Below are positions 2,259 to 31,996 of a DNA stretch of 64,000 nt, piece after piece. A program made the position numbers and the translations under genes. The stretch comes from Dictyostelium discoideum (taxonomy: Eukaryota), in assembly GCA_000004695.1 (NCBI GenBank), contig CM000150.2, positions 4,480,001 to 4,544,000 on the forward strand, given 5' to 3'. Under the pieces are notes generated by a model that was given only the letters and a program-made list of their open reading frames with translations, was not told the DNA's origin and ran no database searches. Position 1 is the stretch's first letter. The number at the start of each line of letters is the position of its first letter.

Positions 2259-2595
2259 ATGACACTTTTTAGTATTTATATTTTAATTTGTTCTTAATAT
2301 TATTTTTAAATATATTGGTATTAATATATATTTTTTTATTTTTTTTTTTTTTATTTTAATTATAATAGATTCAATTTCATCAATTTCAAATTCAAATGGT
2401 ATCTCTAAAAAAAGTTTAATTGTTAATGTTGATAGTAATACAAATGAAAATGGTGGTAATAGTGTTTCATGGTTAGGTGGATTCGATAGTTGTGGTGGTT
2501 GTGGTGGTTGTGGTGGATTCAATGGTTGTGGTAGTTCAAATTTAAATATTATAAATGTTGATATTGATATTGGTCGTCGTCGTAGATGCTGTTAA
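2259..2595 (+). CDS. hssA/2C/7E-family small Gly/Cys-rich protein; exons 2259-2271 and 2369-2595
   Basis: It has the same micro-exon architecture: ATG ACA CTT TTT A|GTATTT donor, tataatag acceptor at 2363-2368. Product: [79 protein letters not shown]. The MTxF start, SISSIS and the GGCGGCGG core are the family signature as I remember it. Confidence 0.5.
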
Positions 2596-2999
2596 TCACC
2601 ATTTATAAATAAATATTTTCAATTTTTATAAATATTTATCTTAATTTTAAATTTCAAATAAATAAAACAACCTAAATATTTAAATTGTTTAGTTTTATTT
2701 TTATTTTTAAGTTTTTGGCGAGTATACTTTTTTTCTTCAATGGGTTCATATTTCATTTTTTTTTTTTTTTTTTTTTTTTTTTATTGCAAAATAAAAAATT
2801 AACACCGTTTAAAAATAGAAATAAAAATTACAATAAAAAAAAAAAAATTACCCAAATTAATTTTAAAATTTTAAATAATCCTTTTTTTTTAACAAAAAAA
2901 AAAAAATTTAAGCGCCAAAATAAATCCATTAAATTAAAATAAAATTTTTTTTTCATTTTTTTTTCATTTTTTTATTTTTTTTATAATTTTTAAAAGGAA

Positions 3000-4724
3000 A
3001 TGAGAAAAAAAATCAAAATTGAATATGAGGAAGAAGATAATGAAAATAATAATAATTTAAGTGATATTACAGAAGATGAAGATAATAGTGATGAAGATTA
3101 TGTTGAAAGAAAGAAAAAACCAACAACTAAAAAAACCAATTCTAAAGTTAAAAAGAATAATACAACCACCACTACTACTACAACCAAAACTTCAATTAAA
3201 GTTAAAGATGAATCAATTGAATCAATTGAATTAAAACCATGTCAACATAGTTTAAAATTACATAAATTTAAAAATAAACAAGAGATTCAAGAGATTAGAG
3301 AATCAATGTTAGGATGGTATGAAAAGAATAAAAGAGATTTACCATGGAGAAAGCATGATAATTCACTTGACGAGAATGTTATAGCTTATAGAGTTTGGGT
3401 ATCAGAGATAATGTTACAACAAACTAGAGTGGCCACTGTAATTGAATACTTTAATAAATGGATTGAAAAATGGCCAACTATCAATGACCTCGCATCTACA
3501 ACAATTGAAGAAGTCAATAAAGTTTGGTCAGGCCTTGGTTATTATAGACGTGCTAAAAACCTATGGTTAGGTTCAAAATATGTAGTTGACAATTTCAATT
3601 CTAAGATTCCATCAGATGTTAAATCATTATTAGAAATCAATGGTATTGGTCCATATACAGCTGGTGCAATTTCATCTATTGCTTTCAATAAACCTGTACC
3701 ATTAGTTGATGGAAATGTAATTAGAGTGTTAAGTCGTGTTAGATCAATTGGTGCAAATCCAAAACTATCTTCAACAGTTAAATTATTTTGGGAATTAGGT
3801 AATGATTTAGTTGAATCTGTTGAAAATCCTTGTAATTTCAATCAATCCCTAATGGAATTGGGTGCCACCATTTGTTCTGTTCAATCACCACAATGTAAAC
3901 AATGTCCAATTCAATCAAATTGTCAAGCATATCAACAAGAGAAACAATTTATAAAACCTGAACCAAAAAATTCAATTTCAAAATTTTTTCAACCAAAAAA
4001 TAATAATAATACAAATGATATAGAATCATCATCATCATCAACAAAACCAATAGTAACATTAAATTTAACTGATATTTGTAAAATTTGTCAAAGTTTTGAA
4101 GATTCTGATGGTCCAACTGAAAGTGTTTGTAGATATCCAAAAAAAGTTTTAAAAACAAAAGCTAGAGATGAAAATGTAAACGTATTTTTAATTCATCAAA
4201 CAAAAAGTAATTTATTTTTATTAACTCAACGTCCTGATACTGGTTTATTAGCATCATTATTTGAAGCACCATCAATTATTGAAGAACTTCAATCAAAAAG
4301 AAAAATTAAAAAAGATAAAGAAGATGATAATAGTGAAGAAGAAGAAGAAGAAAATGATAAAAGTGAAGAAAGTGATGATGATGATGATGAAAAGAATTCT
4401 AAAAAAAGGAAAAAACCAACAACAAAGAAAACAACAAATAAAATAACAAAAGAATTTATAGAAAAAGAAATTTTAAAGAAATTATTTAAATCATCAACAG
4501 ATATAACAATTAAATCTGTTAAATCTATTGGAACAGTTTTACATAAATTCTCACATATTAATCAAACATTAACAGTTTATGATTGTCCATGTGATTTTAA
4601 AAAAGAACCAATTCCAAATGATAAATCTAAAACTAAAAATATTTGTTGGTTAAAACTTGATGAAATTCAATCATCAGTTGGTGTTTCAAAACAAATGTTA
4701 AAATGTTTTGATTTAATAAAATAA
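3000..4724 (+). CDS. myh: A/G-specific adenine DNA glycosylase (MutY/MUTYH homolog)
   Basis: A 574-aa ORF. It has an HhH-GPD domain (LLEINGIGPYTAGAISSIAFNKPVPLVDGNVIRVLSRV) and an Endo III-type 4Fe-4S cluster loop (CSVQSPQCKQCPIQSNC). The C-terminal region is NUDIX-like. Charged low-complexity inserts are typical of this genome. The symbol is from memory of the Dictyostelium mutY-homolog name and is unverified. Confidence 0.85.
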   Translation: MRKKIKIEYEEEDNENNNNLSDITEDEDNSDEDYVERKKKPTTKKTNSKVKKNNTTTTTTTTKTSIKVKDESIESIELKPCQHSLKLHKFKNKQEIQEIRESMLGWYEKNKRDLPWRKHDNSLDENVIAYRVWVSEIMLQQTRVATVIEYFNKWIEKWPTINDLASTTIEEVNKVWSGLGYYRRAKNLWLGSKYVVDNFNSKIPSDVKSLLEINGIGPYTAGAISSIAFNKPVPLVDGNVIRVLSRVRSIGANPKLSSTVKLFWELGNDLVESVENPCNFNQSLMELGATICSVQSPQCKQCPIQSNCQAYQQEKQFIKPEPKNSISKFFQPKNNNNTNDIESSSSSTKPIVTLNLTDICKICQSFEDSDGPTESVCRYPKKVLKTKARDENVNVFLIHQTKSNLFLLTQRPDTGLLASLFEAPSIIEELQSKRKIKKDKEDDNSEEEEEENDKSEESDDDDDEKNSKKRKKPTTKKTTNKITKEFIEKEILKKLFKSSTDITIKSVKSIGTVLHKFSHINQTLTVYDCPCDFKKEPIPNDKSKTKNICWLKLDEIQSSVGVSKQMLKCFDLIK

Positions 4725-6596: not shown

Positions 6597-9500
6597 TTAT
6601 CTTCTTGGTTTTCTTGTTATATAAACAAATGTAATAACCATAAGAGTATTAAATATCCAGAAACAAATAATAAGAGCTAAATTTCTCCATCTATTATCAA
6701 ATGACCAACCAAGTGTATTATAATATTCTTCACCATTGTTGTAAAGACAATAACCACATTTACTTTCATCACCTTCATTTATTGCTTCAACATAACCTGT
6801 TAATGGTTCTGAAATTGGGAAATATTGTTTACATGTCACACCATTTACAGCTTCTGGATTTGTAAAATGAGTGAAATCTTCTGATGTACACTTTACATCG
6901 GTATGTTTTAATACATTTGTAACAATACCTTCCATAAAGTAACGACATGGGTTTAAATGATACACCCATCCTCTCCAAAAGGTTGGAATTGACGATGGTA
7001 TTACCATTACTCCACAGAAAAGAAATAGGAAAACAATTAACAATGGAATGAGTGTATGTGCTAAAAACATGTTGAAACAAATTGCAGCTACAGCTTGACC
7101 GAAACTAACACAGAAATAGAGGAATAAAATGAAAATGAACCAAAAATAAAAATTAATATCATTGTATTCCGTATTTAAACCAGCTGTCCAAAAAGAGCAA
7201 AAGAAGAAAATTGTACCTGAAACTGTAATGAATGGTAATTCTACAACCACAATGGAAATTGCAAATGGGAACCAAGAATAAAATTTCGAAGCAAAATCTC
7301 TTTTAAAGTATTCTTTTTGCATAATGAATTGTGGAAGTACAACGAAAATTAATAAGATTCCAAGAATGAGTGCTTCAAAAATAAAGAATACACGTTGATT
7401 CATATCTGAACTTGATCCTTGTAATGACCAAAAAGTAAAACCAATAATTAAACCTGCAAGAGCTGATTGAATGAATGAACCATACGTATAGAATGGATCT
7501 CTCCACCAAATTAAATTTAAACGTTTATAAACTTCAATAGTTTGATACCATACTGATGTTGCAAATTCTCTAGGTTTACCATGGTCCTCGGTTGATGATG
7601 GTCCTGCTGCTTCCAATGCTGCTAATTCACGCTCAATCTCTTGTAATTCTGGTGATTGTTTCCAAGTTTCTGGCCAATTAACATCACTTTTACCATGTAC
7701 ACCTGCACCAGTTGCTTCTAAAATATATTCTGCTGGATTTTCACTTTCAGTACATGGACGAACACCATATCTTTCGAAATAAGATGTTAAAGTTTTTGAT
7801 CTTTCACCAATATCACCAAAGTAAACAGTTTTACCACCTTTTGCTAATAAAAGAATACGATCAAAATGTTCAAATAATACTGAAGAAGGTTGATGAATTG
7901 TACAAACTAATGGCATACCAGCATCTGCTAATTTACGAATAAATTTAACAATGTTATATGATGATTGAGCATCTAAACCTGATGTTGGTTCATCAAGGAA
8001 AAGAATATGTGGTTTTGCAACCAATTCTACACCAATTGTTAATCTTTTTCTTTCTTCAACGGAAATACCAACACCAGTTTCTAATGTACCAATTAAAGCA
8101 TCACCTAAATGTTTCATTTCCATCATTTCTAAAACATGTTCAACATAATCAAACTTTTCTTCTAATGAAACTGAAGGTTCTTGACGTAACTTTGCAGAGA
8201 AACGTAATGCTTCTCTTACGGTTAAACCTGGATTATGAACATCCATTTGTTCTACATAACCGGTAATACGTTCAAAATCAATTTCTAATGGTTTACCATT
8301 AAGGAAACATTTACCTTGAACTTCACCCATTGTTTTTCTTTTTGCTAATACATCGAGTAATGTTGTTTTACCAGCACCTGATGAACCCATTAATGCTGTC
8401 ATTTGACCTGGTTTAATCCAACCTTCAACATTATCTAATAGTAATCTTTTTCCACCTTTTACTGGTACAGTATAATTAATATTTTGCCAAGTGAAAATAC
8501 CACCTCTCATTTTTAAAGTATCTTTCATTTTACTTGTAGCATTTGCAACTATTTGATTTTGTTTCTTTTCTTCCTCAGCATCATTCATTTTTGGAGCTTT
8601 ACCTTTTTTATAAACTTTATGACTATAACCTCCACCAGTCCAATCGAAATATTCCATTGCAAACATATTCATAGCGGTAAATAGTACCCACCAAAGATAA
8701 GTGATGAAAACATTTTGAGTAAGATCATCTGATCTAAAGTGTAAATACTGATCCAAATAATCTTTACCTTCAACACTTAAAATACCTTCAACAGCACCAG
8801 GCGATGCACAAACTCTATAATCATTGTCGTATCTTGTAGGATTTTTTGGATCAAATGGAATTGCTGTATCATGACAATCAAATGATAAATCACCAAATTC
8901 ATTTGCCATAAGTGCTTTAAAAGCATAACTGAACGGATTTGCCCAATAAAACCAAGCAAACCATGGATGCATTTTTGGTTTTGGAATTGTATAACCACAA
9001 TATGTAATCATAAAGATAAGAATTACATTCATTACATTTTGACTAATGTAAAGTGATGGTGAGAAATTACCAAAGACACGGAAAAGATTTGTTGTTGCCA
9101 ATGTTGCACCTACTAATGTAAAACAGAAAATAAAGAATTTCCCAGCATTATATTGTAAACCAAACATAAAGTAAACTACAATTGAGAATAAAAATACTTG
9201 TATCATCGTTAAGGGTATATCAGTTACAATTTGTGCAATATGTAAAGCTGATGGACGATACATAGCGTAAGAACGTTGCTTTTGTAAAATACGACGACCA
9301 TACATAGTAAGTGGTAGTTCGGCTTCACTAAGGAAAGCATTGAATAGAATAGCTGAAAATATAGCACCACCTCTTGTAAATAAACCAGGAATTGTTTTTT
9401 CCATTTGAAAGAAAATTGAACCATAAACAAATGATTGAGTAAATACTGAAAGATAACGTGAAATCAATGAGAATTTATCACCCCAAATAATTTGAGAATT

Positions 9501-11085
9501 TCTAACGATTAATGCTTTGACTTGAGTTATATATGAAGTTGTATAAATTGATCTCTTTGGTGTAGTTCTACTTTTTTCAGCTTTAACTTCTTGAATGAAA
9601 TCAACTGCTGGTTGTTCAATTTCAATCTTTCTTTCATATTCTTTTTGTTCCTCTAACATATCTCTATACATTGAAGAGTTTCTCCAAGCAGCTTCAAAAT
9701 CGGCAGAAGTTTCTGGAACACGACCTTCAAATCCTTGTCTAATAATACGTTCTTGTGGATTTGTAACACCTGTCAAAAAATCTGGTGTTGATTTTCTTGG
9801 TTCGCAATCGAATCCTAAATCTATAAAATATTGTTTTGCTTTATTGCCAGGTCCAAAATAAATTAATCTACCTTTTTCAATGATTGCGACATTATCAAAT
9901 AAATTATAGATTGAATCTGATGCTTGATAAAATGATGCGATTGTTGTCTTATCTAATGTATCTGACATGATACGAATTGATTTTGCATAATCTAATGCAC
10001 TTGCTGCATCAAGACCACGAGTTGAACAATCATAACATGTAATTGATGCTGATGATACCATTGCTTCTGTAATTGTTAATCTTTTACGTTCACCACCTGA
10101 TAAACCTCTAATAAATTCATTACCAACAATCTTAAAAAAAAAAATAATTAATATCAATTAATAAATTAATTTTATTAAAAACTAAATACTTACAGTATCA
10201 GCTTGATGAACAATACCAAACATTCCTAATAATAAATCAAATATTTTTTGTCTATATGTACGTTTCTTTTCATCTGGCAAACGATTATGAATTGTTTTGC
10301 ATTTTAATGCGAAATCTAAAGTCTGACGAACTGTTAAAGTTGGATGATGAGTATCCTCTTCTGGTGTATAAATTGATTCACCTTGATAACGTTTCCATTC
10401 TTTCGCTGGGATACCACCATATTTAATATCACCTTTAACTTCAACATATGATCCTCTTTGATTTGATATTAAACGCAATAATGTCTATTGTAGTGAAAAT
10501 AAACATTATTAATATTATTTCTAAAAAATATATAAACACATATAAATTTATAATATTTACCGAACAACCAGAACCAGGACGACCTAATACTAATAACATT
10601 CCACCATCTCTATTGAATAAAGTAATATCATGAAGAATATCAAAAGTACTACCTTTCTCTTTCCAAGTTGATGGTTTAAACAAATTGAAAAAACTAATGA
10701 ATGGAGTTGACATATCGGCAATGACGGATTGATCAGCACCTCTACCAACAACTGTTAAATTTCTAATTGAAACACCCATTTTCTTTGGTTTTTGACCATT
10801 TCCTAATGCCATACGTTGAGAATTTTCAAAGTATCTTCTTAATTTAAAATCTTCATCATTTTCATCATGATTATTTTCAGCATCATGACCTGCCAAATAT
10901 TGTTTTGAATCGATTTCCAATTCTCTTTCGACATTTTTAAATTGATTTTCACTCTTTTGAATATCTGGTGAATCTGGTGGTGATGATCCATCACCAACAG
11001 GATTATCATAATTTGGAGGTGTATTAATATCTAAATTACTCCCACCTTCTTGAAGAGCAATTTCTCTTAATTCATATTCTTCCAT
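6597..11085 (-). CDS. ABC transporter G family, full-size PDR-type (NBD-TMD)2, paralog 1; exons 11085-10561, 10484-10194, 10130-6597
   Basis: NBD1 Walker A GRPGSGCS|TLL is split by intron 10485-10560 (gtaaat...aatag). The junction ...HQADT|[17 protein letters not shown] is split by intron 10131-10193 (gtaagt...ttttaag). It is followed by a 1186-aa uninterrupted ORF carrying NBD2 Walker [16 protein letters not shown], signature [12 protein letters not shown], Walker [13 protein letters not shown], and two 6-TM domains. Start is [12 protein letters not shown] at 11085. Confidence 0.9.
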
Positions 11086-11861
11086 TATATTTGTATATAT
11101 GGAAAAATAATGAATTTAAATTTAATCTTTATTTTTTTTTTTTCTTAAATTTATAAAAAAAAAAAAAAAATATAATTAAAATACAGAGATATATAAATAA
11201 TAATATAATAAATACAGAGATATATAAATAATAAAAAAAAAAAAAAAAAAAGTTAGTATTTAAATTTTTAAACAGAAAAAAAATAAAAAAATAAAAAAAT
11301 AAAATTAATTAAATATTAAAATTTAGATTAACAATGTTGTTATATATAAACATAAATCGAAATTTTGTTTTTAAGTGATGCAATTTAGCGAAGTAAAGAA
11401 TCATATTATTTTTTTTATTAAAAAAATGGGGTGTATTTGTGTGGGTAAAGAATAAATTAGAACAATAAGAATGTGGGGGTAATGGTGTTAAAAAGCAAAT
11501 TATATTTTTATTATTTTTATTATTTTTATTTTTATTTTTATTATTATTATTTATATTATTTTTATTACTATTATTGTTGCAATTAAAAAAATAAAAATAA
11601 AATTGTATAGATAATTTTACATTTAATTGACTTTTAATTTTACTTTAATCCAAAAATATTTTAATTTTACTTTAATCCAAAAATATTTTAGAATAATTAA
11701 TTATATGTATATATTAAATTTAATTTAATGAAAAAAAAAAAAAAAAAAAAAAAAAAAAGATAAAGTAAAATAATTTATAGTAATTTTATTTTTCTAAAAA
11801 AAAAAAAAAAGATTAAAAATGAAAATTCGAAAAAATTATTAATATATTATAAATATTTTTT

Positions 11862-12003
11862 TTATTTATATGATTAATGTTGGCGCATTCAATCGTTCAA
11901 AAACTAATCTAAAAGTCCAAATTTGGTTCGGAAAAGTCCCTATTTTAATAAACAATCAAAAATCCACTTTTAGAAATTTATTTTAAAATGTTGTAATGAG
12001 ATG
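11862..12003. repeat. left arm of ~140-bp inverted repeat in the ABCG inter-paralog spacer
   Basis: tttatttatatgattaatgttggcgcattcaatcgttcaaaaactaatctaaaagtccaaatttggttcggaaaagtccctattttaataaacaatcaaaaatccacttttagaaatttattttaaaatgttgtaatgagatgg is about 90% identical to the reverse complement of 12669-12810. Confidence 0.6.
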
Positions 12004-12590
12004 GTTTTTTTAAAAAAAATAAAATAAATAATTAAAATTAATTGGAAATCGCTATCAAGATGTCATTTAGAAGCTTTTTTTTTCAGATCCAAAATTAATT
12101 TAATTAAAAATATTTAAAAAAAAAATAAAAAAAAATAAAAAAAAATTAAAAAAAAAAAAATAAAAAAGAAAAAATAAAAAATAATAAAAAAAAAAATTAA
12201 AAAAAAATAAAATTAAAAATAATAAAATTAAATTTAATAAAATTTGGAAAAACGATGTTGCAATAGATGAGGCTCATTAATGACACTATAACCTTATTCC
12301 AAAAAATAAATAACCCCACAGTTATTTTTTTGTATTTTTTTTTTTTTTTTTTATTTTAAAATTGAATCATAAAATATTATTTAGAACCATTCTGAATAAT
12401 TCTTTTTTATTTGAATACCTGGTGTTTAAGAAAAAAAATAAAAAAAAATAAAAAAAAAAGTAAAATGGGAAAATAATTTGATTGGAAAAAAAAAAAATAA
12501 AAAAATTTAATAAAAAGGTTATTTTTTTTTTATTGTTATTTAATATTTTTATTAATTTTATTTTTTATATTATTATTATTATTATTTTTT

Positions 12591-12672
12591 CCATCTGTTT
12601 TCAAATGACCAACCAAGTGTATACTGTGGTGAAGAATATTATAATCCCCATTGTTGTAAGACAATAACCACA
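12591..12672 (-). pseudogene. relic of ABCG 3' coding end with internal ~21-bp micro-inversion
   Basis: ccatctgttttcaaatgaccaaccaagtgtatactgtggtgaagaatattataatccccattgttgtaagacaataaccacat aligns to 6696-6765 and 13318-13387 (the minus-strand C-terminus ...[18 protein letters not shown]). The segment tgtggtgaagaatattataat is the reverse complement of the corresponding gene sequence. It abuts the right inverted-repeat arm. Confidence 0.5.
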
Positions 12673-12810
12673 TCTCATTAGGACATTTTAAAATAAATTT
12701 CTAAAAATGGATTTTGATTGTTTATTAAAATAGGGACTTTTCCAAAACAAAATTTGGACTTTTATATTAACTTTTGAAAGATTGAATACACCAACATTAA
12801 TCATATAAAT
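12669..12810. repeat. right arm of inverted repeat (partner of 11862-12003)
   Basis: The reverse complement aligns to the left arm along its whole length. The two arms enclose about 660 bp with no long ORF. Confidence 0.6.
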
Positions 12811-13231
12811 AAAAAAAAAAAAAAAAAATCTGAAATATATTAATAATTTTTTGGAATTTTCTTTTTTGATCTTTTTTTTATATTTTAAAATTAAATTACT
12901 ATAAATATTTTACTAATTTTTAAAGGTCAATAAAATGATTAATAGGTACCTTATTACATAATTATATTTCAAATTGTTCTACTAAAATGACATATGGCGT
13001 TGATGATTAATAAAAACTTCAATTATTTTCGAACATCATTCCAACAAATCATTTTTATAGTAGGAATTTTGAAAAAAAAAAAAAATAATAAACAATAAAC
13101 AATAAACAATAAAATTAATATATTTTTTTTTATTGTTAAATATTATTATTAATTTTATTTTATTGTTTATAATTATTATTTATTTATTTATTTTTTATTT
13201 ATTTTTTATTTATTTTTTTTTGGTTGAGATT

Positions 13232-16200
13232 TTATCTTCTTGGTTTTCTTGTTATATAAACAAATGTAATAACCATAAGAATATTAAATATCCAGAAACA
13301 TATTAAAATAGCTAAATTTCTCCATCTATTATCAAATGACCAACCAAGTGTATTATAATATTCTTCACCATTGTTGTAAAGACAATAACCACATTTACTT
13401 TCATCACCTTCATTTATTGCTTCAACATAACCTGTTAATGGTTCTGAAATTGGGAAATATTGTTTACATGTTACACCATTTACAGCTTCTGGATTTGTAA
13501 AATGAGTAAAATCTTCTGATGTACACTTTACATCGGTATGTTTTAATACATTTGTAACAATACCTTCCATAAAGTAACGACATGGGTTTAAATGATACAC
13601 CCATCCTCTCCAAAAGGTTGGAATTGACGATGGTATTACCATTACTCCACAGAAAAGAAATAGGAAAACAATTAACAATGGAATGAGTGTATGAGCTAAA
13701 AACTAAATTTTTTTTTTTTTTTTAAATGATTAATATTAATTTTTTTTTTTTTTTTTTTTTAATAAATAAAATGAGTCTTACCAAATTAAAACTAATTGCA
13801 GATACTGCTTGACCAAAGCTAACACAAAATAAAAGACTATAAAAAAATTTATAAAGATATCTAATTAGTAATTTCCTTTTTTTTTTTTTTTTTTTTTAAC
13901 AACCTACTATAAAATTAAAATAAACCAAAAATAAAAATTGATTTCATTAAATTTAGTATATAAACCAGCTGTCCAAAAAGAACAAAAGAAAAAAAAAGTA
14001 CCAGATATTATTACAATTGGTATCTCCACTGCAACTATTGAAATTGCAAATGGAAACCAAGAATAAAATTTTGATGCAAAATCTCTCTTAAAGTATTCCT
14101 GTTGCATAATGAATTGTGGAAGTACAACGAAAATTAACAAAATTCCAAGAATGAGTGTTTCGAAAATAAAGAATACACGTTGACTCATATCTGAACTTGA
14201 TCCTTTTAATGACCAAAAAGTAAAACCCATTATCAAACCTGCCATTGAAGCTTGAATGAATGAACCATACGTATAGAATGGATCTCTCCACCAAATTATA
14301 TTTAAACGTTTATAAACTTCAATAGTTTGATACCATATTGGTGTTGCAAATTCTCTTGGTTTACCATGGTCTTCAGTCGATGATGGTCCTTGTGCTTCCA
14401 ATGCTGCTAATTCACGCTCAATCTCTTGTAATTCTGGTGATTGTTTCCAAGTTTCTGACCAATTAACATCACTTTTACCATGTACACCTGCACCAGTTGC
14501 TTCTAAAATATATTCTGCTGGATTTTCACTTTCAGTACATGGACGAACACCATATCTTTCGAAATAAGATGTTAAAGTTTTTGACCCTTCACCAATATCA
14601 CCAAAATAAACAGTTTTACCACCTTTTGCTAATAAAAGAATACGATCAAAATGTTCAAATAATACTGAAGAAGGTTGATGAATTGTACAAACTAATGGCA
14701 TACCAGCATCTGCTAATTTACGAATAAATTTAACAATGTTATATGATGATTGAGCATCTAAACCTGATGTTGGTTCATCAAGGAAAAGAATATGTGGTTT
14801 TGCAACCAATTCTACACCAATTGTTAATCTTTTTCTTTCTTCAACGGAAATACCAACACCAGTTTCTAATGTACCAATTAAAGCATCACCTAAATGTTTC
14901 ATTTCCATCATTTCTAAAACATGTTCAACATAATCAAACTTTTCTTCTAATAAAACTGAAGGTTCTTGACGTAATTTTGCAGAGAAACGTAATGCTTCTC
15001 TCACGGTTAAACCTGGATTATGAACATCCATTTGTTCTACATAACCGGTAATACGTTCAAAATCAATTTCTAATGGTTTACCATTAAGGAAACATTTACC
15101 TTGAACTTCACCCATTGTTTTTCTTTTTGCTAATACATCGAGTAATGTTGTTTTACCAGCACCTGATGAACCCATTAATGCTGTCATTTGACCTGGTTTA
15201 ATCCAACCTTCAACATTATCTAATAGTAATCTTTTTCCACCTTTTACTGGTACAGTATAATTAATATTTTGCCAAGTGAAAATACCACCTCTCATTTTTA
15301 AAGTATCTTTCATTTTACTTGTAGCATTTGCAACTATTTGATTTTGTTTCTTTTCTTCCTCAACATCATTCATTTTTGGAGCTTTACCTTTTTTATAAAC
15401 TTTATGACTATAACCTCCACCAGTCCAATCGAAATATTCCATTGCGAACATATTTAAAACAATGTAAAGTATCCACCAAAGATAAAGTATAAAAACATTT
15501 TGAGTAAGATCGTCTGATCTAAAGTGGAATGACTCTTCAATATATTTAGAACCTGATACTGTTAAATTTCCCATTGATGCACCAGGAGATGCACAAATTC
15601 TATAACTATTATCATATACTATAATTTTATTTGGATCAGATGGAATTGCTGTATCTTGACAATCGAATGATAAATCACCAAATTCATTTGCCATAAGTGC
15701 TTTAAATGCATAACTAAATGGATTACACCTATAAAAAAAGAAAAAAAAAAAAAAAAATTATTAATATATATTCCTTAAATTTTAATAAAATTATTTTAAT
15801 TAAAAAAACTTACCAATAAAACCAAGAAAACCATGGATGCATTTTTGGTTTTGGAATTGTATAACCAGTGTATGTAATCATAGAAATGATGAAGATATTC
15901 ATTACATTTTGACTAATGTAAAGTGATGGTGAGAAATTACCAAACATACGGAAAAGATTTGTTGTTGCCAATGTTGCACCTACTAATGTAAAACAGAAAA
16001 TGAAGAATTTTCCAGCATCGTATTGTAAACCAAACATAAAGTAAACCACAATTGAGAATAAGAATACTTGAATAATCGTTAAGGGTATATCAGTAACAAT
16101 TTGTGCAATATGTAAAGCTGATGGACGATACATAGCGTAAGAATGTTGCTTTTGTAAAATACCCCTTTGTCCGAAAGTTAAAGGCATTTCGCATTCGCAT

Positions 16201-18057
16201 AAAAGAGCATTGAATAGAATAACTGAAAAAAGAGTACCACCTCTTGTAAATAAACCATTAATATTTGTTTCTAAATTATAAAATATTGAGCCATAAACAA
16301 ATGATTGAGTAAATACTGATAGGTATCTAGAGCCTAATGATAATTTATCACCCCAAATAATTTGGAAATTTCTAACGATTAACGCTTTAACTTGAGTTAA
16401 AAATGAAGTTGTATAAATTGATCTCTTTGAAGTGGTTTTACTTTTTTCGGCTTTAACTTCTTGAATGAAATCAACTGCTGGTTGTTCAATTTCAATCTTT
16501 CTTTCATATTCTTTTTGTTCCTCTAACATATCTCTATACATTGAAGAGTTTCTCCAAGCAGCTTCGAAATCGGCGAAAGTTTCTGGAACACGACCTTCAA
16601 ATCCTTGTCTAATAATACGTTCTTGTGGATTTGTAACACCTGTCAAAAAATCTGGTGTTGACTTTCTTGGTTCACAATCGAATCCTAAATCTATAAAATA
16701 TTGTTTTGCTTTATTGCCAGGTCCAAAATAAATTAATCTACCTTTTTCAATGACTGCAACATTATCAAATAAATTATAAATTGAATCTGATGCTTGATAA
16801 AATGATGCAATTGTAGTCTTATCCAATGTATCTGACATGATTCGAATTGATTTTGCATAATCTAATGCACTTGCTGCATCAAGACCACGAGTTGAACAAT
16901 CATAACATGTAATTGATGCCGAAGATACCATTGCTTCTGTAATTGTTAATCTTTTACGTTCACCACCTGATAAACCTCTAATAAATTCATTACCAACAAT
17001 CTAAATAATTTTTAAATATTAAAAAATAATATCAATTAATAAATTAACCAATATTATTATTATTATTAAAAACTTACAGTATCAGCTTGATGAACAATAC
17101 CAAACATTCCTAATAATAAATCAAATATTCTTTTTCTATATGTACGCTTTTTTTCATCTGGTAAACGATTATGAATTGTTTTACATTTTAATGCGAAATC
17201 TAAAGTCTGACGAACTGTTAAAGTTGGATGATGAGTATCCTCTTCTGGTGTATAAATTGATTCACCTTGATAACGTTTCCATTCTTTTGCTGGAATACCA
17301 CCATATGTAATATCACCTTTAACTTCAACATATGATCCTCTTTGATTTGAAATTAAACGTAATAATGTCTATAAAATTAAAAAAAAAATTATTAATATTA
17401 TTTTTATTACTAAAAAAAAAAAAAAATTAAAAAAAAAAAATTAAAATAGTTTACCGAGCAACCAGAACCAGGACGACCTAATACTAATAACATTCCACCA
17501 TCTCTGTTGAATAAAGTAATATCATGAAGAATATCAAAAGTACTACCTTTCTCTTTCCAAGTTGATGGTTTAAATAAATTTAAAATTTTAAATATTGGTG
17601 TTGATAAATCTGAAATTACAGATTGATCAGCACCGACACCCACGACTGTTAAATTTCTAACTGAAACACCCATTTTCTTTGGTTTTTGACCATTACCTAT
17701 TTTTTAATAAATTTTAAAAATTAATATTTTTAAAAAAAAATAAAAAAATAATATAATATTAACCATCAACTCACCTAATGCCACACGTTGAGAATTTTCA
17801 AAATATTTTCTTAATTTAAAATCTTCATCATTTTCATTATGATTATTTTCAGCATCTAAATTTGATAAATATTGTTTTGAATCAGTTTCTAATTCATTGG
17901 CAATATATTTAAATTGATTTTCACTATTTTGGATATCTGGTGAATTTAATTGGAAATCATCACCAACCACACCAAAATTATTATTATTATTTGGTGTATT
18001 AATATTTAAATTTTCAACTTCCTGGAAAGAATACTCATTTAATTCAAATTCTTTCAT
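13232..18057 (-). CDS. ABC transporter G family, full-size PDR-type, paralog 2, with 7 introns; exons approx 18057-17775, 17696-17455, 17368-17078, 17000-15814, 15728-13908, 13836-13782, 13702-13232
   Basis: Protein is about 90% identical to paralog 1. Two introns are shared with paralog 1 (after GSGCS, and after ADT|IVGNEF). Four more appear only here, all GT-AG, phase-consistent and 71-85 bp. (1) Intron 17697-17774 splits QRVALG|NGQKPKK. (2) Intron 15729-15813 splits WFYW|CNPFSYAF. (3) Intron 13837-13907 splits FWFILILY|LLFCVSFGQ. (4) Intron 13703-13781 splits AISFNL|FLAHTLIP. Segments correspond to track ORFs 17704-18057, 17410-17673, 15810-16931, 13907-15694 and 13232-13678. Confidence 0.85.
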
Positions 18058-22536: not shown

Positions 22537-22776
22537 TTAATTATCATAATCTTCATCTCTTTCATCTTCATCCAATTCACCAAAAGAACTATCGGAAGGA
22601 TCATCATCATCAAGAGGATTAAATCTTTGTTTTTTGTTTGGTTGATGTCGTTGTTGGTGTTGCTGTTGTTGATAGGAATGATGTTGGTATTGATTATTGT
22701 TATTATGGTTACTATTATAATTATTATTGTTATAGTTATTATGGTTGCTTTTATGATGAAGTTGTTGTAGTTGAGG

Positions 22777-22841
<65 letters not shown>

Positions 22842-23360
22842 GAGGTTGTTGTTGTTGTTGTTGAGGTTGTTGTTGTTGTTGAGGTTGTTGTTGTTGTTGA
22901 GGTTGTTGTTGTTGAGGTTGTTGTTGGGGTCTTGTTACAAAAGTTGGTTGTGGATTTGGTTCATCATCATTAGTGAGGTTTGATAGTGACATTGGATCAT
23001 ATCTTTTACCGCCACCATTATTGATATTATTGAGGTTTGTATTGCTATTGTTATTGTTGTTAATGTTGTTAAAATTACTTATCATATTGTTATTGTTATT
23101 ATTACCACTACTATTTGAACTATAATCCCTAAACTCTCTATTGTCTCTGTTTGGTCTATTATCTCTATGTTCTCTATGTTCTCTATTTTCTCTGTTTTCT
23201 CTATTTTCTCTGTTTTCTCTATCACCTCTATGTTCTCTATTTTCTCTGTGACGCTCTCTGTGCTCTTTGTGATTACTAGATCTATGCTCTTTGTGTTCTC
23301 TGTGATGATCTTTGCCACTGTGATCTCTTTGATTATTATTGTTGGTATTATTGTTGTTGC

Positions 23361-23393
<33 letters not shown>

Positions 23394-24051
23394 TATTATT
23401 ATTATTATTATTATTCATATTATTATTATTATTATTATTATTATTGTTATTACTATTATTATTATTATTATTATTGTTCATATTATTCATATTATTCATA
23501 TTATTATTATTATTATTATTATTAATCATATTATTATTATTATTATTCATATTATTATTATTATTATTAATATTAATGTTACTATTATTGTTATTATTAT
23601 TACTGTTATGGTGATGGTGATCGCTTCTATTTGATTCTCTACTATGATGTTCTTTTTGATCTCTACTTCTCTCTCTGTCTCTCTCTCTACCCTCTTTACT
23701 TTCCTTTTGTCTTTCTCTATCCCTGTCTCTATCCCTGTCTCTATCTCTATCTCCACCCTTACTTGATTTTGACGATGATGATTTAGATTTTTGTGGAGTT
23801 TGATTAGGGTTTTGAGATTGTTGATGGTTTTCATTATTGTTGTTAATATTATTATTGTTATTATTAATATTATTATTATTATTGCTAATGTTGTTATTTT
23901 GAGAAAGGTTACATGGTGAAGCAGGTGGGGATAAGCTATTATTGTTATGGTTTCCTTTCGAATTATTTAAAAGTTTAGTTGAAGTAGTAGTTGTGGTTGA
24001 GTTATTTTTATCTACATTTGGGCTTTGGATTGCTTGTTGTTGTTGTGGTTT

Positions 24052-24100
<49 letters not shown>

Positions 24101-27100
24101 GGTTGTGGTTGTTGTTGTGGTTGTTGTTGAGGTGATTGTTGAGTTATAGTTGGCTGAGATTGTTCAATAGTTGATGTGGTAGATGATTGATCAGCACTAT
24201 TACTTTTATCTTGATGTTCAGAAATATCAAGTTGATCTTTTACGATTTGATCTTTAACAGTAGCTTGTTGAATTGCTAATGAAGTTGGAGATAATGGTGG
24301 TTCTGGTTTCGGTAATTGATTATTTGGGAAGAGTTTATTGAAAAGTTCAGTGAAAAGATTTTGTAAATAGACAGCATCTTCAAATACTTCTGAACCTGAT
24401 TGATTATAAATTTGAGCATTATAAAACATTGAATTGACACTGGCAGCAAAAGATAATGGATTTGAAAACTTGGCACCCACAATTCTTTCTTTTATAGTTT
24501 TCATATCGATTGGTTCTTTAATGGTTATATAATAATCTGGATAATCTCTTTTACTTGGTAATTTGACAAAGATATCACTTCTCTTTCTACCTTCTTCATC
24601 TTGATCGGCTCTAATTGCATCCCAAATTTGGAGATACTTTTGTTCATTCTCAGAGATCTTCTTTTTCATTGTACCTGCTGGTCTACCTCTACCTGCTTTC
24701 TTTACTGGTGATGGTGATGGTAAAGGTGGTTGAGCAGTAATAGATGATGATGATGAAGATGATGGTGTTAATGGTGTTGATGGATTAGAGTTTGATGAAT
24801 CATCACCACCGCCACCACCACCACCACCACCATTACTATTGGCTTTCTTTTCTTTTTCCTGTTTCTTACTTGAAGCAGAAGGTTTCTTTGAGGCAGCAAC
24901 CTTTGCTCTCTTTTTAGATCTTACAGGACGTTGGAAATCTTCATCTTCTTCATCTTCTTCATCTGCGTCATCATCGTCATCCTCTTCATCTGAATAATTA
25001 CTTTCCAATTCTTTTCTCTTATTAGTACGAGATGGAGTTGTTGCAACAACCGAAACATTATTATTATCATAATCATCATTATTATTATTATTATTACTAT
25101 TATTATCGTCATCATCATCATCTAAACCATTTGTATCCTTATCTTTTAATTTTTCTTTTGTATTCTTTTTCTCTTTACGATTATTTGATTCTTTGGAAGA
25201 TTTTGGTTTATCTGAAGTTGTAGTACGTTTTGGAGTTGGTTTAGATTCGAAATCAGAGTCTGAATCAGAAGAAGAAGAGGAGGATCCATCGTCATCATCA
25301 TCAAAGAATTCTGAAATCATAGCATTATTATTTGCAGTTTTTCTTTTAATTTTACCACTTTCCAAAATTTTACGAATTTGTAATTCATTTTCAAGATCTA
25401 AAGATTTCTTACTTGAACCAGGTTTGATTGATTGATTGAGTACAAAACTTAAATCATCACCCAATTCGACCTCTTTAGTGATCCAACTTGGTATTTCATC
25501 CTCTTGACTTAATCTTTTAGCCTCACCTTTTTTACCTGCTTCATCCCATTTCTTTTGATCGATTTCCATTCTCTCTTTATCCATATTTTCATACAATTCA
25601 AACTCTTCAGGAGAACGAGCAATCATTTCATTGATTTGAGAATCGGTGGGTACTGTTTGTTTCTCCATTTCAGCGGTTTCATCTTGAGTCATTAAATCCT
25701 CCAACATTTTCTTTCTATCGGAACGATTTGATTTATTATTGAATTGACCAGCTTGAATGATCTTTTTATCCAATTCTTTCTTAAAGTTTGCTCTTGCTAA
25801 AATACTCTCCTCAACGGAATGAGCAGTGACCAAACGAAGTACACGTACAGTTTGTTTTTGACCAATACGATGTGCACGATCTTGTGCTTGAAGATCCATT
25901 TGTGGATTCCAATCTGAATCGAAAATGATAACAGTATCGGCAGTTTGTAAATTTAAACCTAAACCACCTGCTCTAGTTGAAAGTACGAAAATGAAATACT
26001 CAGAGTTTGGAGCATTGAATAACTCTAAGAGATGACCTCTTTCGTCGGATTTTGTTGAACCATCTAAACGAAGGAATTTGTAATCTTTATAAGCGAAAAA
26101 CACCTCCAAAATATTGATCAATTGAGTCATTTGTGAAAATATTAAAACTCTATGTCCAGCAGCTTTTAACTTTGGTAATAGACGATCCAACAAATCAAAC
26201 TTACCTGCATATCTAATTAGATTATCATCGATATTATACTCGTCATCATAGAAAAGGTAAGGATGATTGCAAATCTTTCTTAATTGAACATAGGTATTCT
26301 TTAGACCTTTTGCTAATTTTGGATTACCATCGGCACCACCAGAACTTGCAAGTTTTGAAACACCCTTTGTTTTAATGAGATCGTACATTTTCGCTTGAAA
26401 AGCCGACATATCACATTTCAATACTTTCTCAACTTTATCTGGTAACTGAGCTTCTACCTCTTTCTTTAATCTTCTTAAGAGAAAAGGTCTTAAAACCTTA
26501 TGAAGACGTTGAATGATTAAAAGTTGTTCCTCTTCATTCATTTCAATCTTTTCACCAGTTTGAGCGAATGGAGCATTAAACCATTGTTCGAAATCTTCAA
26601 CACAATCGAAAATGGTTGGTAGTAAAAAGTTTAACAAAGCCCAAAGCTCTGGTAAACTATTTTGAAGTGGTGTACCAGTCAATAGTAATCTATAACGACT
26701 TGAATAAGAGGTACCCAAAATAATCGATAGTTTACTAGTGTAGTTTTTCATTCTATGACCCTCATCAACGATTAGATAATTCCATTTAATCTTACTTAAT
26801 GCATTCTTATCCTTGATGATATATTCATAGGTTGTTACAACGGCATTGAATTGACCTGGTGCTATAAACTCTTCAAACTTTGATTTTCTAGCAGGTTTAT
26901 CACCATAGTATAAAACACGTTTAACCTTTGGTGCCCATTTTGAAAACTCTTGTCCCCAATTGGAAAGTGTTGACAATGGTACCACAACTAAAAAGGGTCC
27001 ATTATTCTTTTTTACCTCTATCAAATAGGATACCAAAGCAATGGTTTGAATCGTTTTACCAAGACCCATTTCATCCGCTAAAATACCATTCAATTTATTG

Positions 27101-27287
27101 TTATACAATGAAACCATCCATTGAAGTCCTTGCATTTGATATGGTTTTAATTTACCACCTTCTAATAATGCTGGTTGTTCAATAATATCTTCTTGAATTG
27201 AATGTGCTTTTGAATAATATGAATGTGCTTTTGAAACATATGTTGGATTTGTTTGACCTGTTGCTGTTGAAGTTGTTGTTGTTGTAG

Positions 27288-27319
<32 letters not shown>

Positions 27320-27658
27320 GGTGGTGGTGCTGTTGATGTTTCTGTTGTTGTGGTAGATATTGATTTATCATCAACTTTTATATTTGATGAATTATCATCA
27401 CCATCAATAGTTGTTGCTTTTGATTGATCTTTATTATCATTATCTTTCTTTTCTTGAATTTCTTTTGAATTTTTATCTGTATGTTGACCAGAATCATTTT
27501 TCATTATAACATCAGTATTGGATGATGCAGAGGTAGTAGTCGTGGTATTATCGTTTGTTATTTTTTCATCATCTTTATTATCATTTAAACCTATATCATC
27601 TTCATCATCACCATAACCACCTTGATTATTGATACTAACTTTAGGTTTATTACCATTA

Positions 27659-27753
<95 letters not shown>

Positions 27754-29716
27754 ATTACTATTATTATTATTATTATTATCATCTAACATTTGATTATTAT
27801 CATCATTATCATCATCATCATCATCATCTTTACCATTTAATAAATTTGAAATTGGATTTGAAGAACGAACTAAAGGTGATTTTGAATTATTTGAAAGATC
27901 TCTATTTGTTGTATTACCATCAGTATCGATATCAACATCATTTGTTATATTCATGATACTAATTTTTTCAGATTGTTTAGCATCTTCTTCACCTTCTTTT
28001 TCTTTTTGTTGTAAAAGTAATTGATCTTGTTGTCTTCTGATTGCCTCTTCATTCTCTTCTTTCTCTTGAATTGAAATCTTTTCCTTTTGAAGAAGATGAG
28101 AGATTTTATCTAAAAATTCATTGGTTTGATCAAACAATTCACGTAGACGTTGATTTTTAGTTTGTTCCAAGAGTTTAAGGTATTTACTTTCATCATTGGT
28201 TTTGAGTGCACGAAGACGTTCACGCTCTTCTCTCTCTCTTTGTTGTTGTTCTTTCTTTTCTTGTAGGATGAAATAAGCGGTGACACGTTTTGTCATCTTT
28301 TTAATCTTTGTCATTTTGTTTGCATGATACTCTTTAAACTCTTTACTATGATTAAGAATTTGACCCAAGAAATCTTTGAATCTATTCTTTTCCTCATTGG
28401 ATTGTTGTTGATCAAGTTTTTGTTTGAGATCTTTAGATTTCTTTAATTTGGATTTACTAATCTCTGCATCCAATACCTCCCTTCTTAATTGTTTTTGATA
28501 TTCCAACAATGACAATTGTTTATATTGAATGGTCTCTTGAAGTTTCTCAATAGTACCATCCTCTAATGTTGGAATGGACTCATAGAGATATTCAAGTTTA
28601 TCCGATATCAATTGACTAACCAAATTTCTTTTACATTCCAACATGAATTCAATATCCATTGGTTTAGGTATCAATGTTTCCATTGGCAAACTTTTTAATG
28701 GATCAATTGGAATTGATGGTGGCTCTGGTTCTACAACTGGTGTTTGATTTATAATTTGTTGTTGTTGTTGTTGTTGTGTTGGTTGTATTTGTGAAACTAC
28801 CATCGGTTGTGTTGCTATAATACCACCATTGGTAGGTGTTGCTATAACACCGCCATTGGTAGGTGTTGTAGTTGATACTGACGACACTGCTATTACTTGT
28901 GTTGGAATAACAACAGTTGATACAAGTGCTGCTGGTGTATTTATTGATGTTGGTGTAGTTACTAAACTTGGTACAGCATTTGGTTGTTGATTTATTTGTT
29001 GAGGATCTTGTTGGGATTGTTGTTGTTGAGTTATTTGCTCTGATTGTTGTTGGGGTTGATTTTGTTCTGGTTGTTGTTGTGCTTGCATGCTTTGTGTTTG
29101 CTCTGATGACTGTACTTGTTCTGGTTGTTGTTGGGATTGTTGTTGGGGTTGGGGTTGTAAATTTTCTGGTTGTTGTAAGTGTTCTTGTTGTTGTTGTTGT
29201 TGTTGTTGTAAGTGTTCTGGTTGTTGTTGTTGTAAATTTTCTGATTGTTGTTGTGATTGTTGGTGTTGTGGTTGTTGGATTTGTTGTGGTTGGGGTTGTT
29301 GGGCTTGGGTTTGTTGTTGCTGCTGCTCTGGTTGCACTTGGGATTGTGGTTGTGGTTGAGTTTGTTGTTGAGTTTGTGGTTGAGTTTGTTGTGTTTGTTG
29401 AGCTTGTTGAGTTTGTTGGTATGTTTGTTGAGCTTGTGGTTGTTGGTATGTTTGTTGAGTTTGTGGTTGAGTTTGTTGTGTTTGTTGAGTTTGTGGTTGA
29501 GTTTGTTGGTATGTTTGTTGAGCTTGTGGTTGTTGTAACAACTGAGATTGTTGGTGTTGAATCAATCTTTGTTGTTGTAATAGTTTTTGATGTAACATTT
29601 GCTGTTGTATTAACTGTTGTTGGTTTAGTGTCTGTCCTGGTGGTGCCTGTATTTGTTGTAATTGTTGTTGCATCATTTGGTATTGTTGATTTAATGATGC
29701 AATGTTGTTATAAATA

Positions 29717-29752
<36 letters not shown>

Positions 29753-30721
29753 CTAGTATTACTATTGTTGTTGTTGTTATTATTGTTGTTATTGTTATTG
29801 CTATTGCTATTGTTATTACTATTGCTATTGCTATTGCCACTGCTATTGTTATTGTTATTGCTATTGTTATTGCTATTGTTATTGTTATTGCTATTGTTAT
29901 TGCTATTGTTATTGTTATAACTAATATTATTAATATTGTTATTTCCAATATTTCCGTTATTATTACTGATATTGGCACTATTATTGGTGCTATTACCACT
30001 ATTGTTATTACTATTAATATTGCTATTTGTATTATTATTCATATTATTATTATTATTATTATTATTATTCATATTATTATTCATACCATTATTATTATTC
30101 ATATTATTATGATTCATATTATTATTATTACTATTATTATTGGTATTATTATTATTCATATTATTATTCATGTTATTCACACCATTATTATTATTCATAT
30201 TATTATTCATATTACTATTATTATTACTATTCATATTATTATTATTCATATTACTATTACTATTATTGTTATTATTATTATTAACATTACTATTATTTGT
30301 ATTCATTTGTACAACAGACGGTGAAGATTGATTTATAAATGTTGAAGGATGAGCCAATTGCAAGATTCCATAATACTCCTCCGTAATGGGTTTTCTTTGC
30401 ATGAAGCATTTATACGCATAAACCTGAGCTCTAATAACATCAAGTTGTTCTTGTGTAAAAAAAAATGCTGGTGGAGCTAATAATTTTTGTTGAATTGGTT
30501 GTGGTTGTTGCGCTTTCATTTGTTGCTGATTTTGATTTTGGTTTTGATTTTGATTTTGGTTTTGGTTTTGGTTTTGGTTTTGGTTTTGGTTTTGGTTTTG
30601 GTTTTGGTTTTGGTTTTGGTTTTGGTTTTGGTTTTGGTTTTGATTAAAATGTTGATGTTGTGGTTGTTGGAATTGTTGGTTTTGTTGATGTTGATGTTGT
30701 TGTTGGTGTTGTTGTTGTTGT

Positions 30722-30768
<47 letters not shown>

Positions 30769-31085
30769 TTGCTGTTGCTGTTGCTGTTGTTGTTGTTGTA
30801 AAAGTAATTGTTGTTGCATCAATTGTTGTGTAGATGGAATGTTGGGTGATGTCATATTTGGTGAGGTTACATTCATATTTTGTTGATGTTGTAAATGTTG
30901 CTGTTGTTGATGCTTCATTTGTTGCTGTTTCAATTGAGCCTCGTATGCTGCTTGTTGCTGTTGTTGTTGGATTTGGGGTTGTTGTTGTTGAGGTTGTTGT
31001 TGATGTTGATGTTGTTGATGTTGTTGATGATGTTGATGGTATTGTTGTTGTGGTTGTAAAAATTGTTGTGGTTGTTGTTGTGGTG

Positions 31086-31116
<31 letters not shown>

Positions 31117-31152
31117 CTGTTGTGTTTGTGGTTGATGTTGTTGTTGTTGCGG

Positions 31153-31187
<35 letters not shown>

Positions 31188-31549
31188 GCTGCTGTTGTTG
31201 TACCATTGCCAATTTTCTTTGCACTAAAATATTATGTTGTCGAAGGATTTTATTATAGAGATCCAACTCTTGCTGATTTAAAGAAGAAAATGGCTGTGGG
31301 TTCTTTAAAAAATTTATACAACTTTGATAATTAGGTTCTGAGATATCTGTTCCATTGGTTTGTAAATTATCTAAATACTATATAGGTTTTGAACAAATAA
31401 AAAAAGAAAAAAAAAAAAAAAAAAGTTAATAACAAACCCTTTGGTAATAATAAAAATAATGAAAAACACTTACAACATAGACTTCAACATGTTGGTTTTT
31501 TGTAGGAACTTGTTGTTGTTGTTGTTGTTGCATCATATTTGTTTGTTGA

Positions 31550-31592
<43 letters not shown>

Positions 31593-31902
31593 GAGCTTGT
31601 TGAGCTTGTTGTTGTTGTTGTTGTTGTTGTTGAGCTTGTTGTTGTTGAGCTTGTTGTTGTTGAAGTTGAGCTTGTTGTTGTTGAAGTTGTTGTTGTTGAA
31701 GTTGCTGTTGTTGAAGTTGTTGCTGTTGTTGTTGTTGCTGTAATAGTTGTTGTTGTTGTTGCTGTTGTTGTAAAAGTAGATGATATTGTTGTTGCTGTTG
31801 TTGTGGCGCAGATTTATTTATATTCGGTGAATTTATATTCATTGGTGGTGTATTTATATTTTGTTGTTGTTGATGATGGTGTTGTTGTTGTTGTTGTTGT
31901 AA

Positions 31903-31996
<94 letters not shown>

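Follow-up and report, generated by a model that had tools for sequence, protein, structure and literature searches.

A tandem pair of PDR-type ABCG transporter genes

The window analyzed here, a stretch of 64,000 nucleotides (nt) with a GC content of ~20% from Dictyostelium discoideum AX4 (contig CM000150.2, positions 4,480,001 to 4,544,000), contains two adjacent genes for full-size ABCG transporters, abcG21 and abcG19, which are closely similar in coding sequence and differ by four introns. An earlier note, made from the sequence alone, had described them as head-to-tail PDR-type ABCG paralogs on the minus strand and had proposed exon-intron models for both. We read both copies on the minus strand, spliced them at the coordinates proposed in that note, and looked up the translations by exact sequence. 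Splicing yielded two open coding sequences (CDSs) of 4350 nt, coding for 1449 amino acids (aa) apiece, in the following genes (positions are those of the window):

6597..11085, minus strand: abcG21 (copy 1, downstream), CDS including the stop codon, 1449 aa, two introns; spliced translation exactly that of XP_646646/Q8T673
13232..18057, minus strand: abcG19 (copy 2, upstream), CDS including the stop codon, 1449 aa, six introns; spliced translation exactly that of XP_646647/Q8T675

The proposed exon-intron models are those of the reference annotation, and the two genes do not differ at the sequence level from the AX4 reference entries (Q8T675 and Q8T673), with which they share proteins and exon structures. 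The protein alignment of the two copies is gap free, with an identity of 89.4% (91.7% for the CDSs), in agreement with the earlier estimate of about 90%.

AbcG19 and AbcG21 display the same succession of Pfam domains, all above the curated cut-offs, namely, ABC_trans_N, ABC_tran, ABC2_membrane, PDR_CDR, ABC_tran, and ABC2_membrane. Both proteins thus have the reverse order of nucleotide-binding domains (NBDs) and transmembrane domains (TMDs), (NBD-TMD)2, and the PDR_CDR loop domain that distinguish PDR-type full-size ABCG proteins. In both copies, NBD1 has a Walker A motif of the form GRPGSGCS at residue 168 and a canonical LSGGE signature at residue 282, while NBD2 has the Walker A motif GSSGAGKT at residue 854 and a degenerate signature, ISVEERKR, at residue 961. 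The nucleotide-binding sites are accordingly asymmetric in AbcG19 and AbcG21 alike, the degenerate element being the Walker A motif in NBD1 and the signature in NBD2; asymmetry of this sort is typical of PDR transporters. On the basis of this architecture and these motifs, the pair are PDR-type full-size ABCG transporters of the kind represented by yeast Pdr5 and Snq2, with a predicted role in export.

Intron structure of the two copies

We name introns by AbcG19 residue and phase (e.g., 668.2 lies at residue 668 in phase 2). The introns of the two genes, all on the minus strand, are as follows:

10485..10560, minus strand: abcG21 shared intron 176.0, 76 nt, after CDS nt 525; a position common to abcG19 and all abcG19/abcG21 orthologs
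10131..10193, minus strand: abcG21 shared intron 273.0, 63 nt, after CDS nt 816; an ancient position, also found in the Planoprotostelium homolog
17369..17454, minus strand: abcG19 shared intron 176.0, 86 nt; identity with its abcG21 counterpart is ~69%, and the two differ by indels
17001..17077, minus strand: abcG19 shared intron 273.0, 77 nt
17697..17774, minus strand: abcG19-only intron 95.1, 78 nt, GTGAGT...AG, after CDS nt 283
15729..15813, minus strand: abcG19-only intron 668.2, 85 nt, after CDS nt 2003
13837..13907, minus strand: abcG19-only intron 1275.2, 71 nt, GTAGGT...AG, with an A21 run, after CDS nt 3824
13703..13781, minus strand: abcG19-only intron 1294.0, 79 nt, with A21 and A16 runs, after CDS nt 3879

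The account given in the earlier note, of two introns in copy 1 and of the same two plus four more in copy 2, stands in every detail. The four additional introns (78, 85, 71, and 79 nt, against an earlier range of 71 to 85 bp) all have GT-AG ends and a GC content of 7-14%, and their removal restores the open reading frame (ORF) exactly, as expected of spliceosomal introns. Each interrupts sequence that is contiguous in copy 1, where the 5'-most of them, 95.1, is absent as well. Retention of any single one of the six introns of abcG19 would introduce a premature stop. Across the AX4, FIW, and FIY strains and Dictyostelium firmibasis, the position and phase of the four are constant while their sequences and lengths drift (70-82, 76-86, 71-77, and 74-117 nt for 95.1, 668.2, 1275.2, and 1294.0, respectively). 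The premature stops on retention, along with the low dN/dS of abcG19 (given below), lend indirect support to the predicted splicing of all four in vivo.

Some of the shared introns carry long microsatellites, such as an (ATT)n repeat of ~230 nt in intron 176.0 of the upstream D. firmibasis copy (locus L004, 3946-4290) and an (AAT)n repeat of ~100 nt in intron 273.0 of abcG19 of strain FIW (locus L001, 10957-11143). Such expansions show a rapid turnover of microsatellites inside the shared introns of some orthologs.

Concerted evolution of abcG19 and abcG21

Segmentation of the abcG19-abcG21 CDS alignment with a two-state hidden Markov model placed the boundaries between three homogenized tracts and the diverged sequence around them:

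16450..17574, minus strand: conversion tract 1 (NBD1), abcG19 CDS nt 406-1367, 97.2% identical to abcG21 9580-10680; holds both shared introns
14393..15445, minus strand: conversion tract 2 (NBD2), abcG19 CDS nt 2287-3339, 99.2% identical to abcG21 7608-8660
13232..13693, minus strand: conversion tract 3 (C-terminal TMD2), abcG19 CDS nt 3889-4350, 98.5% identical to abcG21 6597-7058

The diverged segments (CDS nt 1-405, 1368-2286, and 3340-3888) are 76-86.5% identical. Sliding-window distances likewise show near-identity at about residues 151-450, 751-1100, and 1301-1449 and divergence elsewhere, and the same mosaic is seen in D. discoideum and D. firmibasis. The antisense stretches 7712-8266 and 14497-15051, which the earlier note had singled out as conserved almost base for base, differ at 6 of 555 bases. 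The longest identical runs, of 360 and 345 nt, go far beyond chance: when the 362 differences were permuted 10,000 times, no run exceeded 169 nt. Purifying selection by itself does not explain this near-identity, because four-fold-degenerate sites are almost undiverged inside the tracts (~0 differences, with a single one over residues 801-1100 in tract 2) and differ at 20-40% outside them. The synonymous divergence (dS; Nei-Gojobori) between abcG19 and abcG21 is 0.07 in converted blocks versus 0.42 in unconverted blocks.

Neighbor-joining trees with bootstrap, built separately from the diverged and the homogenized blocks, have opposite topologies. The diverged blocks recover an abcG19 clade including the upstream D. 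firmibasis copy and an abcG21 clade including the downstream D. firmibasis copy and the genes of Dictyostelium citrinum and Dictyostelium dimigraforme (100% bootstrap for each), and the two clades are sisters at 100%, with Dictyostelium purpureum 155206 outside. In the converted blocks, the paralogs cluster by species, again with 100% bootstrap. In discrete tracts, then, and at synonymous sites too, paralogs within a species are closer to each other than are orthologs between species. On these sequence comparisons, the ~90% identity of the pair is a mosaic generated by ongoing gene conversion, which has acted independently in D. discoideum and D. firmibasis.

Concerted evolution of tandem paralogs by interlocus conversion is classically known from globin, opsin, and heat shock gene pairs. 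The pair studied here resembles those systems in its mosaic tracts with sharp ends, in the near-absence of synonymous divergence within them, and in the clustering by species inside and by orthology outside the tracts. It differs in that all three unconverted segments bear paralog-specific introns, a layout that recurs in a second species.

Two observations on existing resources touch the same tracts. The UniProt entry Q8T680 (AAL91498.1), "AbcG13," is a chimera: it resembles AbcG21 at its N terminus and at about residues 1114-1296, whereas its residues 480-760 are exactly those of AbcG19. It is probably an early misassembly across the near-identical conversion tracts. The primers for the arms of the abcG19 knockout (Miranda et al. 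2013, Table S1) are a perfect match to either gene, since their sites fall within conversion tracts, and the verification primers are specific for abcG19 (match positions in the window are 15010 and 8225, 13618 and 6983, and 14184 and 14138). In practical terms, targeting constructs, knockout arms, and short reads intended for one of the two genes can match the other as well, and the near-identical tracts explain the chimeric "AbcG13" entry.

Syntenic loci in relatives and the age of the pair

To extend the comparison to related species, we accepted exon structures only where the spliced genomic DNA reproduced the annotated protein exactly. Two further strains of the D. discoideum group have an AX4-like structure, with introns 95.1, 176.0, 273.0, 668.2, 1275.2, and 1294.0 in the upstream gene and 176.0 and 273.0 in the downstream gene. 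In D. firmibasis, we found the same tandem pair, an upstream six-intron and a downstream two-intron gene, with positions and phases identical to those of D. discoideum. The alignment of the copies with sister-species orthologs, which the earlier note had recommended, thus recovers the same intron difference in a second species. D. citrinum and D. dimigraforme have one gene each at the syntenic site, of the abcG21 type and with the two-intron structure; tblastn searches for a second copy or remnant of abcG19 in these two species matched this single gene only, a result with which assembly collapse is still compatible. The abcG21 clade has two introns throughout its five species or strain groups.

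The trees from unconverted blocks group the copies by orthology, and the duplication is therefore older than the split of D. discoideum and D. firmibasis. With D. purpureum outside both clades, the phylogeny places the duplication after the D. purpureum split and before that of D. discoideum and D. firmibasis, and it indicates a later loss of abcG19 in the lineage or lineages of D. citrinum and D. dimigraforme. The failure to find an abcG19-type gene in these two species contrasts with the severe developmental phenotype of the abcG19 knockout in D. discoideum. Between the copies, homology of the flanks was limited to noncollinear low-complexity matches, so that an extended duplication unit could not be traced past the gene body itself.

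Polarity of the intron difference and alternative explanations

For polarity, the outgroup set comprised eight homologs with mapped introns, among them other paralogs from group-4 species, given here in AbcG19 residue and phase:

D. purpureum 155206: introns 141.2, 175.2, 273.0, 352.0, 982.0; the closest preduplication relative
D. purpureum 149091: introns 141.2, 175.2, 273.0, 352.0, 372.1, 1327.2, 1448.1
D. citrinum 6639: introns 104.0, 176.0, 220.0, 273.0
D. dimigraforme 10878: introns 141.2, 273.0
D. discoideum FIW745: intron 141.2
Cavenderia fasciculata 03471: introns 116.1, 141.2
Cavenderia fasciculata 03470: introns 116.1, 143.0
Planoprotostelium fungivorum 02419: 18 introns, of which 116.1 and 273.0 are shared with dictyostelids

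The ancestral-state check with outgroup ABCG genes, also recommended in the earlier note, gave a uniform answer: positions 95.1, 668.2, 1275.2, and 1294.0 are empty in the abcG21 clade and in all eight outgroup genes. The outgroup intron that comes closest to any of them, Planoprotostelium 663.0, is 17 nt away from 668.2 and differs from it in phase. Because the protein alignments are ungapped and highly conserved around all four sites, neither misalignment nor an unannotated intron can mask a shared position. Given the absence from all outgroups, every scenario requires four gains within Dictyostelia. The phylogeny on which the four introns are absent from all outgroups, the property asked of a bona fide gain, is resolved with 100% support at the relevant nodes.

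Lineage-specific introns occur elsewhere in the family: D. purpureum has them at 352.0, 372.1, 982.0, 1327.2, and 1448.1, and D. citrinum 6639 has them at 104.0 and 220.0. The Planoprotostelium gene, for all its 18 introns, has none at these positions. Neither abcG19 nor abcG21 has the ancient intron 141.2; in this family, introns turn over in both directions.

The earlier note had put intron loss first, for example, by gene conversion against a cDNA, and had named gain between the duplicates as the alternative. In the version with loss, the common ancestor of the pair had six introns and abcG21 shed four of them by recombination with reverse-transcribed mRNA. In D. discoideum, introns change mainly through loss of this kind, which tends to spare the 5' end and often takes neighboring introns at once (Ma et al. 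2015, PMC4683709), and introns 668, 1275, and 1294 do form a 3' group in which the last two are adjacent. The ancestral introns that this version calls for are nevertheless absent from D. purpureum 155206 and the other seven outgroup genes, so that the same four introns would have to be gained on the shorter preduplication stem and then removed. Removal of the four from abcG21 takes at least two separate events, since positions 95 and 668 are separated by introns 176 and 273, which abcG21 has kept; moreover, the abcG21 clade is uniformly two-intron. On the D. discoideum branch, introns were lost at a genome-wide level of ~6% (441 losses versus 6,432 conserved positions; PMC4683709). With the outgroup absence, the need for at least two extra losses, and this genome-wide figure taken together, we regard loss from abcG21 as distinctly unlikely; it does not hold as the leading idea, and the gain named as its alternative is better supported. 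A gain of all four introns on the abcG19 stem is the more parsimonious polarity and, in our judgment, a strongly favored one.

Three further explanations have to be weighed against the same evidence. That the copies are young and the intron event fresh, as the words "recent" and "young duplicates" of the earlier note implied, is suggested by the 89% protein identity and by stretches of several hundred identical bases; the D. firmibasis locus, where this pair occurs with an identical difference in introns, already refutes it, and it also conflicts with the orthology-wise clustering of the diverged blocks, with the paralog dS outside the tracts, and with intron sequences that are strongly diverged between orthologs. 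Its rescue by an independently formed D. firmibasis pair with the same four positions is implausible, and we consider a recent origin scarcely credible; the high identity reflects the conversion mosaic instead. An import of the diverged, intron-bearing blocks of abcG19 from a distant intron-containing ABCG gene by ectopic conversion would account in one step for islands of divergence that coincide with the extra introns. In every diverged block, though, the abcG21 clade is nearest after the abcG19 orthologs, with 0 of 131 retrieved homologs closer; the two clades unite at 100% to the exclusion of D. purpureum, and no sampled paralog has the four positions, which makes such an import highly improbable. 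Finally, abcG19 might be a decaying pseudogene and its four "introns" frame-breaking AT-rich insertions, a reading to which its absence from D. citrinum and D. dimigraforme, and hence its dispensability in some lineages, lends some color. Against it, all four elements have GT-AG ends and give back the full ORF on removal, and their position and phase are kept in four genomes while their lengths vary by nonmultiples of three. The ratio of nonsynonymous to synonymous divergence (dN/dS) of abcG19 against its D. firmibasis ortholog is 0.16 (0.10 in the converted part), disruption of the gene leads to severe developmental delay, and its expression has been assayed by RNA-seq (Miranda et al. 2013, PMC3743828). 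These values point to purifying selection on abcG19 and contradict a frameshifted pseudogene, which the earlier note had listed as an outcome that would overturn its reading and which we hold to be virtually out of the question.

Extra introns and conversion tracts

The distribution of the extra introns follows that of the conversion tracts. Each diverged segment has at least one abcG19-only intron: the first has the intron after CDS nt 283, the second the one after nt 2003, and the third those after nt 3824 and 3879. Tract 3 starts 9 nt downstream of intron 1294.0, and both shared introns lie within tract 1. The two D. firmibasis copies, too, are diverged from each other in the windows that bear these introns. 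Because a tract that crossed such a site would either erase the intron or copy it to the other gene, the intron difference persists only in unconverted segments. The recurrence of the layout in a second species suggests in addition that the intron heterology helps to set tract limits, and a heterology of ~70-85 nt may actively end conversion tracts.

Possible sources of the new introns

An origin from introners or by intron transposition was probed with pairwise local alignments of the six abcG19 introns of D. discoideum and D. firmibasis against shuffled sequences, in which nearly all scores fell within the null distribution. The sole pair above it, 1275.2 and 1294.0, owes its score to long sense-strand poly(A) runs, which both introns share and which mononucleotide shuffling destroys; we rejected this score as evidence for transposition. 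An origin by duplication of an adjacent exon was discarded as well, all scores of the introns against the CDS of their own gene being within the null. No convincing target-site duplications or flanking direct repeats were found at the intron junctions, and no terminal repeats were seen in the four abcG19-only introns.

The two 3' abcG19-only introns have sense-strand poly(A) runs from A21 to A32 in D. discoideum (13837-13907 and 13703-13781) and in D. firmibasis (locus L004, 7777-7853 and 7909-7996). These runs could hint at the insertion of a polyadenylated sequence or just reflect slippage in AT-rich DNA.

Introners are intron-generating transposons of Micromonas, some fungi, and other organisms. 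The abcG19 case resembles them in the appearance of several new introns within a short evolutionary interval. It differs in the features that define introners, as the four abcG19-only introns, apart from their poly(A) runs, resemble neither one another nor the shared introns, and none of them showed target-site duplications.

A model for the history of the pair

On the basis of these observations, we propose the following history. A PDR-type full-size ABCG gene was duplicated in tandem between the D. purpureum and D. firmibasis splits, giving two functional copies. Four spliceosomal introns, at residues 95, 668, 1275, and 1294, would then have been gained by abcG19 on its own stem, between the duplication and the divergence of D. 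firmibasis, with abcG21 keeping the ancestral two-intron structure. In each species independently, recurrent conversion between the paralogs has homogenized three tracts, in NBD1, in NBD2, and in the C-terminal part of TMD2, while the three intervening segments escaped and diverged. The intron difference survives only where conversion does not reach, and the heterology may itself terminate tracts. As a whole, this combination of an old pair, concerted evolution, and four gains on the abcG19 stem is probably correct.

Several points weigh against it. Intron loss in D. discoideum is ~10 times as common as gain and biased away from the 5' end (PMC4683709), and three of the four extra introns are found in the central or 3' portion of the gene. 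The comparisons of the four introns with each other, with the shared introns, and with their own CDS did not yield a source, and by the stricter standard quoted in PMC4683709, which asks for an identified source along with a clear phylogeny, the gains remain putative; the signal of a source may have decayed since the D. firmibasis divergence (dS ~0.5). The PDR paralogs of D. discoideum were sampled in part, and an unsampled one that shared a position would weaken the polarity. Lastly, the paralog dS in the coarse "unconverted" blocks (0.42) is not above the ortholog dS (0.45-0.52), and these blocks therefore still hold some converted sequence.

Elsewhere in the window, at 22537-32340 on the minus strand, very large ORFs (2909 aa and 304 aa) have as their counterpart in the syntenic loci a gene of ~3400 aa. 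Skew in both GC and AT is extreme in this region, suggestive of long low-complexity repeats in coding sequence.

Relation to known intron gains and significance

The genes, proteins, and exon structures of the pair are already annotated, and both conversion between tandem paralogs and occasional intron gain in Dictyostelium are known processes. Literature searches on the evolution of abcG19/abcG21 introns, on gene conversion in Dictyostelium, and on introners brought up no earlier description of the history of this pair. In a survey of 7,503 one-to-one ortholog pairs, Ma et al. (2015, PMC4683709) counted 40 stringent D. discoideum gains; as one-to-one reciprocal-best-hit orthologs alone were used, abcG19, a member of a paralogous family, may have fallen outside that assessment. 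The abcG19 introns are like the putative gains of that study in being absent from outgroups, short, AT rich, and GT-AG bounded and in having no identified source; they differ in that all four gains are concentrated in a single gene and on a single dated branch. By a rough Poisson estimate, four gains in a 4.35-kb CDS have a probability of ~2e-9 per gene at the stringent rate, i.e., ~2e-5 such genes per genome; if introns specific to D. discoideum are counted as liberally as possible, the expectation rises to ~0.4 such genes per genome. The size of the excess therefore hinges on how often introns are really gained, and the clustering is notable, not extraordinary.

What is new is the evolutionary history, that is, the age of the pair, its conversion tracts, and the polarity of its introns, which together make a replicated and datable example. 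Well-polarized gains that can be placed on one branch are scarce outside introner-bearing lineages. The pairs of D. discoideum and D. firmibasis also provide a natural replicate for asking whether the presence or absence of an intron limits conversion tracts between paralogs. More speculatively, and with considerable doubt on our part, a burst of four abcG19-specific gains in an intron-poor, loss-dominated genome might have supplied heterology barriers that created three protected islands, within which abcG19 could diverge and acquire a developmental function of its own. If this were true, introns would be a device for escape from concerted evolution.

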